Below, in pieces: positions 24,811 to 29,400 of a stretch of 64,000 bases of DNA. The position numbers and the translations under genes are program-made. Under the pieces are notes generated by a model. That model was not told where the DNA came from. It saw nothing but the letters and a program-made list of their open reading frames with translations, and did no database searches. Source of the stretch: Escherichia coli (GTDB lineage Bacteria > Pseudomonadota > Gammaproteobacteria > Enterobacterales > Enterobacteriaceae). Each line of letters starts with the position of its first letter. Position 1 is the stretch's first letter. The stretch lies in the NCBI RefSeq assembly GCF_009931435.1, contig NZ_CP043414.1; one strand, written 5' to 3'.

Positions 24811-24877
24811 TTCTTTTCCCCCTCGCCCCTTTGGGGAGAGGGCCGGGGTGAGGGGAAACGACCTCTCAGGAGTCAAC

Positions 24878-25573
24878 ATGTTAGAAGATCTCAAACGTCA
24901 GGTTTTAGAAGCCAACCTGGCGCTGCCAAAACACAACCTGGTCACGCTGACCTGGGGCAACGTCAGCGCCGTTGATCGCGAGCGCGGCGTCTTTGTAATC
25001 AAACCTTCCGGCGTCGATTACAACGTCATGACCGCTGACGATATGGTCGTGGTCAGCATCGAAACCGGTGAAGTGGTTGAAGGTACGAAAAAGCCCTCCT
25101 CCGACACGCCAACTCACCGGCTGCTCTATCAGGCATTCCCGTCCATTGGCGGCATTGTGCATACGCACTCCCGCCACGCCACCATCTGGGCGCAGGCGGG
25201 CCAGTCAATTCCGGCAACCGGCACCACCCACGCCGACTATTTCTACGGCACCATTCCCTGCACTCGCAAAATGACCGACGCAGAAATCAACGGCGAATAT
25301 GAGTGGGAAACCGGTAACGTCATCGTTGAAACTTTCGAAAAACAGGGTATCGACGCAGCGCAAATGCCTGGCGTTCTGGTCCATTCTCACGGCCCGTTTG
25401 CATGGGGTAAAAACGCTGAAGACGCAGTGCATAACGCCATCGTGCTGGAAGAAGTCGCTTATATGGGGATTTTCTGCCGCCAGCTTGCTCCGCAGTTACC
25501 GGATATGCAGCAAACATTGCTGGATAAACACTATCTGCGTAAGCATGGTGCGAAGGCATATTACGGGCAGTGA
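24878..25573 (+). CDS. araD: L-ribulose-5-phosphate 4-epimerase
   Basis: Frame 24848..25573 trimmed to conserved [19 protein letters not shown] start (231 aa). Confidence 0.95.
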
Positions 25574-25580
25574 TTTAAGA

Positions 25581-25612
25581 GAAGCATCTGGGTAACAGGT
25601 GCTTCTTTTTTA
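25581..25612 (+). terminator. Rho-independent terminator after araD (may act bidirectionally)
   Basis: GAAGCATCTG-GGTAA-CAGGTGCTTC stem followed by TTTTTTATT; the minus-strand 147-aa ORF ends 7 nt beyond it. Confidence 0.8.
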
Positions 25613-25619
25613 TTATCAC

Positions 25620-26063
25620 TCAGGCAGCAAGAAAAATTTCTGCCCCTATTCCCTCAATTAACAGTGCTTCTAATGAAGGGGCAATATACACCGCATCATC
25701 AAGATCTAAATTACCAAAACCGACGAGATATAAACCAAACCCCTCTTTTCCTTCGGCATAAAAAATCACTTTTCCGCCTTCATCATCGCCAATCGCCAGA
25801 GCGTGTGGAATATAATCCTGAATATGGTATGCGGCATTCATCTCACTACAGCCTGCGGCTCCCCAAATTCTGATATAAGACGTTGAATCCATCACTTTTA
25901 ATTCAACGTCTGCCATCAGAGTAATAAAGGTTAAATACTCATCAGGAATTGCAATGTGAAAATAATTTTTTATAAGTTGACCGAGTCCACTATAATCTAA
26001 TACGGGTTCCCATGACGCCAGCGTGAATTTTTCATGCAATTTAACAATAGGAAACTTACTCAT
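25620..26063 (-). CDS. Hypothetical protein, SUKH/SMI1-KNR4-like (candidate immunity protein); third gene of the islet operon
   Basis: 147-aa ORF; ATG with AAGGA SD; start overlaps upstream ORF stop (ATGA); motifs IPDEYLTFI, AIGDDEGGKVIFY, DDAVYIAPSLEALL resemble SUKH-family immunity proteins; AT-rich. Confidence 0.6.
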   Translation of the reverse strand: MSKFPIVKLHEKFTLASWEPVLDYSGLGQLIKNYFHIAIPDEYLTFITLMADVELKVMDSTSYIRIWGAAGCSEMNAAYHIQDYIPHALAIGDDEGGKVIFYAEGKEGFGLYLVGFGNLDLDDAVYIAPSLEALLIEGIGAEIFLAA

Positions 26064-26407
26064 TTCATCATCCTTTTCTTATACTTCTGGGGTAAAATAT
26101 CCGTTATAACGCCTTCACCTATAAATCCGGCTTCCCACAGCAGAAACTCACTGCCACAGCTGATCCACGGCATTACAAGTTCAGGATTTAAAAACGCCAT
26201 CTCAAGATTGTGTACCATTTCGCCAGGGTGAATCGTTTTTCCATAGCCGTCGATGTAAATCCGGCAGCCATAACCATATGAAGATAACTCATTAATCCCT
26301 TTAAAAAAGACAGGACAGCCGTAAAAACGGTTAGATGATAACAAAGGGCCACGATGCGATTTTTGCGTTGAAGAGTATAGTGTAATGGTAATCCGAACCT
26401 TTCTCAT
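26060..26407 (-). CDS. Hypothetical 115-aa protein; second gene of the islet operon
   Basis: ATG preceded by GGAGG SD 5 nt upstream; 12-nt spacer from upstream ORF; overlaps downstream ORF start; no recognisable family. Confidence 0.55.
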   Translation of the reverse strand: MRKVRITITLYSSTQKSHRGPLLSSNRFYGCPVFFKGINELSSYGYGCRIYIDGYGKTIHPGEMVHNLEMAFLNPELVMPWISCGSEFLLWEAGFIGEGVITDILPQKYKKRMMK

Positions 26408-26419
26408 CTTCCCTCCGAA

Positions 26420-26752
26420 TTAATTACGCTCTTCAATCAAATATGTCGTTTTATTAGTCCAGGCGATTATTTTATAGGGTCTGTTAATAATACCTTTCTG
26501 CGTATAATCAGCCATAATTTCTGATGGATACCAACCATAACCAAAGCAAAATAAAGCACCTACATTAATAAGCTCACTAATTACACTTAGTTTCTCATTT
26601 TCATTACTGGTATTTTTGCTAAATCGATCATTGTCGGCAGAAAAACCCAACCGTTGCATTTTTTCAACGTTATCATATCCGGTCACTACCGTTTCAATGA
26701 AATTATCACTTATGCTAACCACTATAATACAATCGCTCGGCAGTGTGTTCAT
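26420..26752 (-). CDS. Hypothetical 110-aa protein; first gene of the islet operon
   Basis: ATG with AAGGA/AGGGG SD; AT-rich; no recognisable family. Confidence 0.55.
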   Translation of the reverse strand: MNTLPSDCIIVVSISDNFIETVVTGYDNVEKMQRLGFSADNDRFSKNTSNENEKLSVISELINVGALFCFGYGWYPSEIMADYTQKGIINRPYKIIAWTNKTTYLIEERN

Positions 26753-26975
26753 TTCCCCTTGATCCTTCTAAAGTCATTTTTTCACCACAACAATGAATTC
26801 AATAGATATAATGAATATATGCAGCCATTTATATATAATTAGCATTACACCCTAATGCCTTAATATAACCCAAACAGAAATCGTCCGATAATCAGAAAAT
26901 GTAATCATTGAATAAAGCAGGAACCTTTTTATCGCATGAGAAACCGAAGATGGTTGATGCCGTTTCGTCAAACAT

Positions 26976-27035
26976 TACTGTACAAAATATCAGTGTTCAG
27001 TAAAAAACCAGGCTATAATCAAGCCTGGTTTTTTG
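26976..27035 (+). promoter_or_regulatory. polB (dinA) SOS control region: LexA box plus promoter-proximal perfect hairpin
   Basis: TACTGTACAAAATATCAGTG (CTG-N10-CAG) at 26976-26995; AACCAGGCT-ATAATCA-AGCCTGGTT hairpin followed by TTTTT ending about 14 nt before the polB GTG. Confidence 0.6.
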
Positions 27036-27048
27036 ATGGATTTTCAGC

Positions 27049-29400
27049 GTGGCGCAGGCAGGTTTTATCTTAACCCGACACTGGCGGGACACCCCGCAAG
27101 GGACAGAGGTCTCCTTCTGGCTGGCGACGGACAACGGGCCGTTGCAGGTTACGCTTGCACCGCAAGAGTCCGTGGCGTTTATTCCCGCCGATCAGGTTCC
27201 CCGCGCCCAGCATATTTTGCAGGGTGAACAAGGCTTTCGCCTGACGCCGCTGGCGTTAAAGGATTTTCATCGCCAGCCGGTGTATGGCCTTTACTGTCGC
27301 GCCCATCGCCAGTTAATGAATTACGAAAAGCGCCTGCGTGAAGGTGGCGTTACCGTCTACGAGGCCGATGTGCGCCCGCCAGAACGCTATCTGATGGAGC
27401 GGTTTATCACCTCACCGGTGTGGGTCGAGGGTGATATGCGCAATGGCGCTATCGTTAATGCCCGTCTGAAACCGCATCCCGACTACCGCCCGCCGCTCAA
27501 GTGGGTTTCTATTGATATTGAAACCACCCGCCACGGTGAACTGTACTGCATCGGTCTGGAAGGCTGCGGGCAGCGCATCGTTTATATGCTGGGGCCGGAG
27601 AATGGCGATGCCTCCGCGCTTGATTTCGAACTGGAGTACGTCGCCAGTCGTCCGCATCTGCTGGAAAAACTCAACGCCTGGTTTGCTAACCACGATCCCG
27701 ATGTGATCATCGGCTGGAACGTGGTGCAATTCGATCTGCGAATGCTGCAAAAACATGCCGAGCGTTATCGTATTCCGCTGCGGCTGGGGCGCGATAACAG
27801 TGAGCTGGAGTGGCGCGAGCACGGCTTTAAAAACGGTGTCTTTTTTGCCCAGGCCAAAGGGCGGCTAATTATCGACGGTATCGAGGCACTGAAATCCGCG
27901 TTCTGGAATTTCTCTTCATTCTCGCTGGAAACCGTCGCTCAGGAGTTATTAGGCGAAGGAAAATCTATCGATAACCCGTGGGATCGGATGGACGAAATTG
28001 ACCGCCGTTTCGCCGAAGATAAACCTGCGCTAGCAACTTATAACCTGAAAGATTGCGAACTGGTGACGCAGATCTTCCACAAAACTGAAATCATGCCGTT
28101 TTTACTCGAACGAGCGACGGTTAACGGCCTGCCGGTAGATCGGCACGGGGGATCGGTGGCGGCGTTTGGTCATCTCTATTTTCCGCGAATGCATCGCGCT
28201 GGTTATGTCGCGCCTAATCTCGGCGAAGTGCCGCCGCACGCCAGCCCTGGCGGCTATGTGATGGATTCGCGGCCTGGGCTTTATGATTCGGTACTGGTGC
28301 TGGACTATAAAAGCCTGTACCCGTCGATCATCCGCACCTTTCTGATTGATCCCGTCGGACTGGTAGAAGGTATGGCGCAGCCTGATCCAGAGCACAGTAC
28401 CGAAGGCTTTCTCGATGCCTGGTTCTCGCGGGAGAAACATTGCCTGCCGGAGATTGTGACTAACATCTGGCACGGGCGCGATGAAGCCAAACGCCAGGGC
28501 AATAAACCGCTGTCGCAGGCGCTGAAGATCATTATGAATGCCTTTTACGGCGTGCTCGGTACTACCGCCTGTCGCTTCTTCGATCCGCGCCTGGCATCGT
28601 CGATCACCATGCGTGGTCATCAGATCATGCGGCAAACCAAAGCGTTGATTGAAGCGCAGGGCTACGACGTGATCTACGGCGATACCGACTCAACGTTTGT
28701 CTGGCTGAAAGGCGCACATTCGGAAGAAGAAGCGGCGAAAATCGGTCGTGCACTGGTGCAGCACGTTAACGCCTGGTGGGCAGAAACGTTGCAACAGCAA
28801 CGGCTGACTAGCGCACTGGAATTGGAGTATGAAACCCATTTCTGCCGTTTTCTGATGCCAACCATTCGCGGAGCCGATACCGGCAGTAAAAAACGTTATG
28901 CCGGGCTGATTCAGGAGGGCGATAAGCAGCGGATGGTGTTTAAAGGGCTGGAAACCGTGCGCACCGACTGGACACCGCTGGCCCAGCAGTTTCAGCAGGA
29001 GCTATATCTACGTATCTTCCGCAACGAGCCATATCAGGAGTACGTCCGCGAAACCATCGACAAACTGATGGCTGGCGAACTGGATGCACGGCTGGTTTAC
29101 CGTAAACGCCTTCGCCGTCCACTGAGCGAATACCAGCGTAATGTGCCGCCTCATGTACGCGCCGCACGCCTTGCGGATGAAGAAAACCAAAAGCGCGGTC
29201 GCCCCTTGCAATATCAGAACCGCGGCACCATTAAGTACGTATGGACCACCAACGGCCCGGAGCCGCTGGACTACCAACGTTCACCGCTGGATTACGAACA
29301 CTATCTGACCCGCCAGCTACAACCCGTGGCGGAGGGAATACTCCCTTTTATTGAGGATAATTTTGCTACACTTATGACCGGGCAACTTGGGCTATTTTGA
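27049..29400 (+). CDS. polB: DNA polymerase II (B-family)
   Basis: 783-aa ORF, GTG start; exonuclease and polymerase motifs (YGDTDS). Confidence 0.95.

Follow-up and report, generated by a model that had tools for sequence, protein, structure and literature searches.

The 73-bp stretch immediately upstream of polB (positions 26976-27048 of the window, by which we mean the whole 64,000-nucleotide stretch of Escherichia coli DNA under analysis) most likely represents the SOS promoter of polB (dinA) built into the ancestral intrinsic terminator of the araBAD operon, a reading to which we assign a probability of about 0.8. Its elements would follow one another as a LexA box, 20 nt, a -10 hexamer, a transcription start 6-7 nt further on, a leader of 23 nt and the GTG start codon of polB. 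The hairpin found between the box and the start codon would be part of this promoter, with its 5' arm as the promoter spacer, the -10 hexamer in its loop and the start site in its 3' arm. A polymerase that comes from upstream along the plus strand would transcribe both arms and the U-tract and hence terminate; one that starts at the polB promoter would transcribe only part of the 3' arm, so that the hairpin would never form in polB mRNA. LexA bound to the box would occupy the -35 position and keep initiation repressed until the SOS response is induced. Between araD and the promoter of this strain lies an islet of the Escherichia fergusonii type, which carries its own allele of the LexA box at the ancestral spacing. 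The hairpin would persist there since most of it is promoter and start-site sequence, and it would be a back-up barrier at most.

In the window, araB, araA and araD follow one another on the plus strand, and araD, the last gene of araBAD, ends at 25573 (the listed ORF, 24848-25573, includes an upstream GTG; the annotated protein has 231 residues). A terminator-like hairpin with its T-run lies on the same strand at 25577-25613, 3 nt past the araD stop codon. It is followed by an AT-rich islet (25620-26752) of three minus-strand ORFs of 147, 115 and 110 residues (25620-26063, 26060-26407 and 26420-26752), which are directed away from polB. The LexA (SOS) box, the 20-mer TACTGTACAAAATATCAGTG, is at 26976-26995, with its CTG-N10-CAG core at 26978-26993; we refer to this allele as type B. 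The polB-proximal hairpin (27002-27034) and the polB gene itself, which codes for DNA polymerase II (783 codons from the GTG, 27049-29400), are both on the plus strand, and rapA is the next gene past polB.

The polB-proximal hairpin consists of an A-run, a 5' arm, a loop, a 3' arm and a T-run. AACCAGGCT (27006-27014) pairs with AGCCTGGTT (27022-27030) in a perfect 9-bp stem with five G-C pairs, the 7-nt loop ATAATCA occupies 27015-27021, and 14 nt (27035-27048) separate the T-run from the polB GTG at 27049. The earlier note had described the stem, the loop and the distance to the GTG correctly. It had also reported five T's after the stem; the T-run is indeed there but has six residues (27029-27034) and overlaps with its first two the end of the 3' arm. 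Six A's at 27002-27007 mirror this T-run, and with them the helix can be extended to 14 pairs. The predicted free energy of the RNA fold, -21 kcal/mol with this A-tract extension, compares with -6.6 +/- 2.6 kcal/mol for shuffled sequences (z = -5.5; none of 200 shuffles was as good) and with -19.4 kcal/mol for the corresponding hairpin of K-12. The hairpin was called by a terminator scan. The fold of the minus strand is also stable and, in the window, its stem is followed by T6 as well. No further copies of the hairpin were found in the window, where 0.01 matches are expected, which indicates that this single-copy structure is not a repeated element, and an Rfam scan of positions 25400-27400 gave no match at E <= 1. 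In its structure, a GC-rich stem-loop directly followed by a U-tract, the hairpin has the form of an intrinsic terminator. Its context in the window is different, as no co-directional gene ends before it, whereas in K-12 and in 57 species with araD adjacent to the box it stands at the end of a transcription unit.

In K-12, the gap between araD and polB is 74 bp long and reads TAA-tga-CTGTATAAAACCACAG-12 nt-AACCAGGCT-ATACTCA-AGCCTGGTTTTTT-14 nt-GTG, i.e. the araD stop codon, 3 nt, the LexA box, 12 nt, the hairpin, 14 nt and the polB start codon. In K-12, as in the species in which araD ends less than about 55 nt from the box, the polB-proximal hairpin is the sole terminator-like hairpin past araD. 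By sequence comparison, the hairpin is neither new nor special to the islet-bearing strain; it is native to the araD-polB gap of K-12. From its form, its position and its pattern of decay among related species, we infer that it is the ancestral intrinsic terminator of araBAD. An intrinsic terminator of this operon was reportedly described along with the araBAD sequence by Lee and co-workers in 1986. The operon is not expressed without arabinose. Arabinose reportedly raises polB through read-through, a point that we do not use as evidence. The 3' ends of araBAD were not found in the literature sought, and the Term-seq supplement of Adams (2021) has no entry for araD and only an internal 3' end for polB.

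We collected polB upstream regions by a genome scan with the PolB N-terminus, which yielded 80 species loci, one of them unusable as it is cut at a contig end (L006). Adding the window, K-12 and the second islet-bearing E. coli brought the number of usable sequences to 82. A hairpin was considered intact when at least seven consecutive pairs can form, and araD was considered adjacent when at most 300 nt separate its end from the box. Of the 57 araD-adjacent species, 53 have an intact hairpin, compared with 9 of the 23 non-adjacent ones (Fisher p ~1e-6, with species treated as independent). Its decay is one-sided. Thus, the 5' arm, which corresponds to the promoter spacer, matches the consensus at 97% in the adjacent and 92% in the non-adjacent group, whereas the values for the 3' arm are 98 and 69%. 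When the hairpin has decayed, a separate terminator is usually found past araD. Not every case can be put down to a requirement for termination, since among the loci at which a co-directional gene other than araD ends next to the box, six have an intact hairpin and seven have lost it.

Non-Watson-Crick pairs in the araD-adjacent group comprise nine G.U and two A.C pairs, an excess that favours selection on a plus-strand RNA helix. The stem of Buttiauxella is wholly re-paired (AAGTGGTC/GACCACTT), an A-U pair is replaced by a G-C pair in one Enterobacter species, and compensatory stems are present at loci L082 and L073. A covariation test on 74 aligned hairpins was not significant: 448 of 500 shuffles scored at least as high, owing to the near invariance of the stem. 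According to a bioRxiv report (10.1101/2024.07.17.603904), Salmonella orthologues exist for fewer than 20% of E. coli terminators; the double duty of the araBAD/polB hairpin as a promoter would fit its unusual conservation among such poorly conserved elements.

Two loci depart from the common arrangement. In Pluralibacter gergoviae (L069), araD is adjacent and the usual stem is swapped for a different, longer hairpin (GCCACTCAAAC.../...GTTTGAGTGGC, -14.6 kcal/mol), which extends over both the -10 hexamer and the leader and may be an independent re-invention of a terminator. In the clinical isolate E. coli JNEC-KY178 (L083; NZ_AP045174.1, locus 2289-2995), an IS200C element is found directly past the T-run of the hairpin. 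It sits in the 23-nt polB leader and parts the SOS promoter from the coding sequence.

The plan of the polB promoter, i.e. its box, spacing and hexamer, appears essentially invariant across the Enterobacteriaceae. In each of the 82-83 sequences, TATA[AC]T occurs once and only once within the 110 nt that precede polB, at 29-33 nt from the GTG across the usable sequences, and columns T17-A18-T19-A20 and T22 of alignment A1 are invariant. In the window the hexamer is TATAAT (27014-27019, with GGC just before it), which spans the last base of the stem and part of the loop; in K-12 it is TATACT. Published maps place the polB start just downstream. In MG1655, it is at 65803, as judged from only two reads, which gives a leader of 23 nt preceded by the string GACTGTATAAAACCACAGCCAATCAAACGAAACCAGGCTATACTCAAGCCT, ending in ...GGCTATACTCAAGCCT, and in Klebsiella pneumoniae it is at 69499, with a 24-nt leader and the string ...CCAGGCTATAATCAGGCCTG, ending in ...GGCTATAATCAGGCCTG (Kim et al. 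2012, PMC3415461). In Salmonella Typhimurium SL1344, dRNA-seq identified 115459 as the primary start, for a leader of 23 nt and the string CCTGTACAAAATAACAGTATTACCCCCTAAAACAGGTTATAATTAGCGTGA, ending in ...GGTTATAATTAGCGTGA (PMC3963941). All three starts are 6-7 nt past the hexamer, within the range of 6-8 nt used for sigma-70/sigma-S promoters. They fall inside the 3' arm in the two species that keep the hairpin, E. coli and K. pneumoniae; in Salmonella this arm is missing. On tiling arrays, the UV-induced polB transcript of K-12 starts ~47 nt past the beginning of the box (PMC3009722), in agreement with the mapped K-12 start within array resolution. A second, weak K-12 start at 65946, inside araD, would give transcripts that run into the hairpin (PMC3415461).

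By homology, the polB start of the window would be T27026, corresponding to K-12 65803, or G27027, corresponding to the Klebsiella start. With the former, the predicted 5' untranslated region is the 23-nt segment 27026-27048 on the plus strand, transferred by homology from K-12, whose sequence is identical. The suggestion that the loop may be part of the polB promoter is thus borne out by the invariant -10 hexamer and the starts mapped 6-7 nt further on in three species. The same maps locate the start inside or beyond the 3' arm, not upstream of the hairpin, the position that the earlier note had named as speaking against its own reading. As polB starts within the 3' arm, its mRNA would lack the 5' arm and with it the whole hairpin, which therefore could not attenuate its own transcript. 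The -35 candidate, CAGTGT at a 17-nt spacing, matches TTGACA at one of six positions (three of six for CAGCCA in K-12), and a promoter scan did not call the polB promoter.

The box TACTGTACAAAATATCAGTG has the form expected of a LexA site, a CTG-N10-CAG 16-mer with an AT-rich centre, and is located where it had been reported; the consensus is close to TACTG(TA)5CAGTA (PMC6590174). The bare CTGT-N9-CAG pattern occurs 10 times in the window for 6.4 expected occurrences, which is not significant alone. We therefore scored the box with a weight matrix made from 17 published sites (Table 4 of PMC3009722), from which the K-12 polB box was left out. It obtained 12.0 bits, the third best score in the 64 kb, compared with 7.0 bits for the proven K-12 polB box, 13.6 bits for dinB and 16-28 bits for most sites with the same matrix, and it thus lies at the weak end of the range of supported sites. 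The best score in the window (17 bits) is that of CGCTGGGAAGATAAACAGTA at 42328-42347, inside the 3' end of an apaH-like ORF of 282 residues (41560-42408); it is probably a chance, non-promoter site. The promoter-proximal end of the polB box covers the -35 position, with CAG ending 20 nt before the -10 hexamer in the window and in K-12 alike, and this spacing is conserved in all but 2 of the 82-83 Enterobacteriaceae sequences. K-12 polB is among the UV-induced genes with a LexA motif (PMC3009722). Binding of LexA to the window allele is expected by homology.

The claim that polB keeps its SOS box in spite of the insertion needs to be revised. A megablast search against ~5,400 E. coli genomes showed that the homology with ordinary E. 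coli sets in only at 27005 (query base 156, at the foot of the hairpin), which leaves the box outside. Compared with the K-12 box, 4 of the 16 core positions differ and the flanks are unrelated (TA...TG versus GA...CC). The box is contiguous with islet-type sequence common to E. fergusonii and Escherichia albertii. It is identical in E. fergusonii, and near-identical variants are present in the second islet-bearing E. coli haplotype (L002) and in the E. albertii islet haplotypes. The polB SOS box of the window is a replacement allele of the Salmonella/E. fergusonii type, which belongs to the islet side and has the ancestral spacing. Across the collection, the CTGTAT...CAGC allele is found in 53 of the 57 species in which araD abuts the box, and the CTGTAC...CAGT allele in 17 of the 23 non-adjacent species, the intervening genes of which are mutually unrelated. 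A stronger box as the cause of this link between allele and arrangement was rejected, since the groups do not differ in mean score (14.0 and 14.4 bits).

The islet differs in composition from its flanks (33-43% versus 54-58% GC). Of 5,426 complete E. coli genomes, only two contain it (91.5% identity); it is standard in E. fergusonii and occurs as a third variant in some E. albertii. E. fergusonii CP053045.1 has the same islet, box, spacer and hairpin, with 98.6% identity over 25620-28252, whereas K-12 is only 95.6% identical over the first ~1.2-1.3 kb of polB. Positions 24920-28252 are 100% identical to ABPVGG010000001.1 of GCA_035607835.1 (side loci L090 and L084). These identities suggest that the islet and the early polB segment were exchanged between E. 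fergusonii and E. coli. The only Pfam match among the islet ORFs is a sub-threshold match of ORF147 to SMI1_KNR4, which makes it SMI1/KNR4 (SUKH-1)-like, in agreement with its NCBI name. Searches of the islet ORFs against NCBIfam and PADLOC gave no family match, and the genes that separate araD from polB in other genera, Salmonella and Citrobacter included, showed no homology to them. The islet may be an orphan cluster of immunity genes.

The earlier note had also proposed that, with the islet inserted, araBAD transcripts terminate 1.4 kb away from polB, and a separate terminator-like hairpin is indeed present directly past araD (25577-25609; 14 pairs, -19.7 kcal/mol, z = -6.8, followed by a T-run). 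This hairpin (25577-25613 with the T-run) is shared with L002 and absent from K-12. As a predicted terminator, it would take over araBAD termination in the islet-bearing E. coli haplotypes. The proposed insulation of polB from islet-directed transcription does not agree with the orientation of the three islet ORFs, which are on the minus strand and transcribed away from polB. Given this orientation and the new terminator past araD, the former terminator role of the polB-proximal hairpin is probably largely redundant here. Control of the islet by SOS from a minus-strand promoter abutting the box was considered and rejected, as TTGACG (26971-26966) is without a usable -10 hexamer 17 nt on. Within the islet, a plus-strand promoter-like site (25969-25996, TTTATA-16-TATAAT, 10 of 12 matches), antisense to ORF147, is a possible source of transcription toward the polB promoter.

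Several explanations differ from a promoter built into an old terminator. That the hairpin attenuates or insulates polB's own transcripts, started upstream near the LexA box, is highly implausible. Its location between the box and the start codon would suit such a role, TATAAA inside the boxes of type A can be read as a -10 hexamer, and transcripts from the weak K-12 start in araD would read through the hairpin; however, the starts mapped in three species are inside or past the 3' arm, which deprives an attenuator of its defining feature, Salmonella has the same start and no hairpin, the Rfam scan gave no family match, and no conserved alternative pairing partner that could serve as an antiterminator was seen in the folds. 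We also give very little credit to the idea that a dimeric polB regulator binds the inverted repeat as DNA and that no RNA structure is involved. The 9-bp palindrome is perfect and centred on the -10 region, and its 5' half (AACCAGG) is conserved even where the 3' half is gone, but the Salmonella promoter is still active with a decayed 3' half, and the bias of mismatches toward G.U (nine versus two), the compensatory changes in both arms in Buttiauxella and the terminator-like U-tract after the stem all point to RNA pairing. Equally improbable is a chance or decayed CTG-N10-CAG match that would leave polB free of LexA control. The frequency of the bare pattern (10 versus 6.4 expected) and a score of 12 bits, below most proven sites (14-28 bits), speak for it; against it, the box outscores the proven K-12 polB box, lies at the distance from the hexamer that is seen in 81 of 83 sequences and is conserved across islet haplotypes with diverged flanks, and a near-identical Salmonella allele sits at a mapped polB promoter.

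A further possibility, which we regard as rather doubtful, is that in islet strains the hairpin is still selected as an insulator, against plus-strand leak-through or spurious islet promoters and, by virtue of its A6/T6 symmetry, against antisense transcription leaving polB in the direction of the islet. Such a role would extend the promoter-in-terminator reading, not replace it, and we hold this extension, too, to be tentative. In every islet-bearing Escherichia haplotype the hairpin is perfect, contrary to what a mere relic would lead one to expect, although the sites are too few to decide. Its conservation is 100% among three islet haplotypes that have otherwise diverged, whereas the 12-nt spacer between box and stem differs at most positions. 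The stable minus-strand fold with its T6, the plus-strand promoter-like site inside the islet and the A-tract extension (-21 versus -19.4 kcal/mol in K-12) are also in line with insulation. Nevertheless, only about two substitutions are expected in the 13-nt 3' arm at the divergence of the islet, by our estimate, and their absence is not significant; with so few expected changes, perfect conservation does not separate selection from recency. In addition, Salmonella and a number of Citrobacter species whose upstream neighbours are divergent have lost the 3' arm, the L002 haplotype lacks the A-run, and the start site within the 3' arm constrains that sequence regardless. A broader version is improbable in our view. 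It holds that the araD-polB junction is an old recombination hotspot for unrelated cargo islets that come with a type B box, and that the Escherichia ex-terminator has been selected as a two-way insulator between the cargo operon and polB. If it were true, the response of polB to arabinose and SOS would be altered in islet lineages.

The arrangement reported here, a polB promoter within an araBAD terminator, is essentially known, and the window is an allelic variant of the polB/dinA promoter and araBAD terminator of K-12. The K-12 promoter, with the box GACTGTATAAAACCACAGCC, is orthologous and has the same plan of box, 20 nt and hexamer in the loop, an identical 23-nt leader and the GTG. It differs from that of the window in its box (7.0 versus 12.0 bits, 4 of 16 core positions) and hexamer (TATACT versus TATAAT). 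The 12-nt spacer between box and stem is unrelated and A-rich in the window, and the upstream neighbour is the divergent islet, not araD. The K-12 araBAD terminator has the same hairpin sequence and U-tract as the window, in which araD is 1.4 kb away with its own terminator. The polB promoter of Salmonella enterica, with the type B box CCTGTACAAAATAACAGTA, resembles the window in its CTGTAC...CAGT class, its spacing and its -10 hexamer. Both have genes between araD and polB, and the Salmonella start was mapped at the homologous position; in contrast, Salmonella has lost the 3' arm, whereas the hairpin of the window is perfect, and the intervening genes are unrelated. As in bidirectional intrinsic terminators, the A6-stem-T6 sequence of the window folds stably on either strand, with a U-run after the stem; unlike them, it is not flanked by a convergent gene pair, and its A-tract is not conserved in K-12 or L002. 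One compact sequence would thus serve two transcription units, as the stop of araBAD and the start of polB. In K-12, heavy arabinose-driven traffic would end on the polB promoter, whereas in the islet strains it would stop 1.4 kb away. With this distant stop and a box and -10 hexamer nearer to consensus, basal and induced levels of Pol II may differ between islet strains and K-12.
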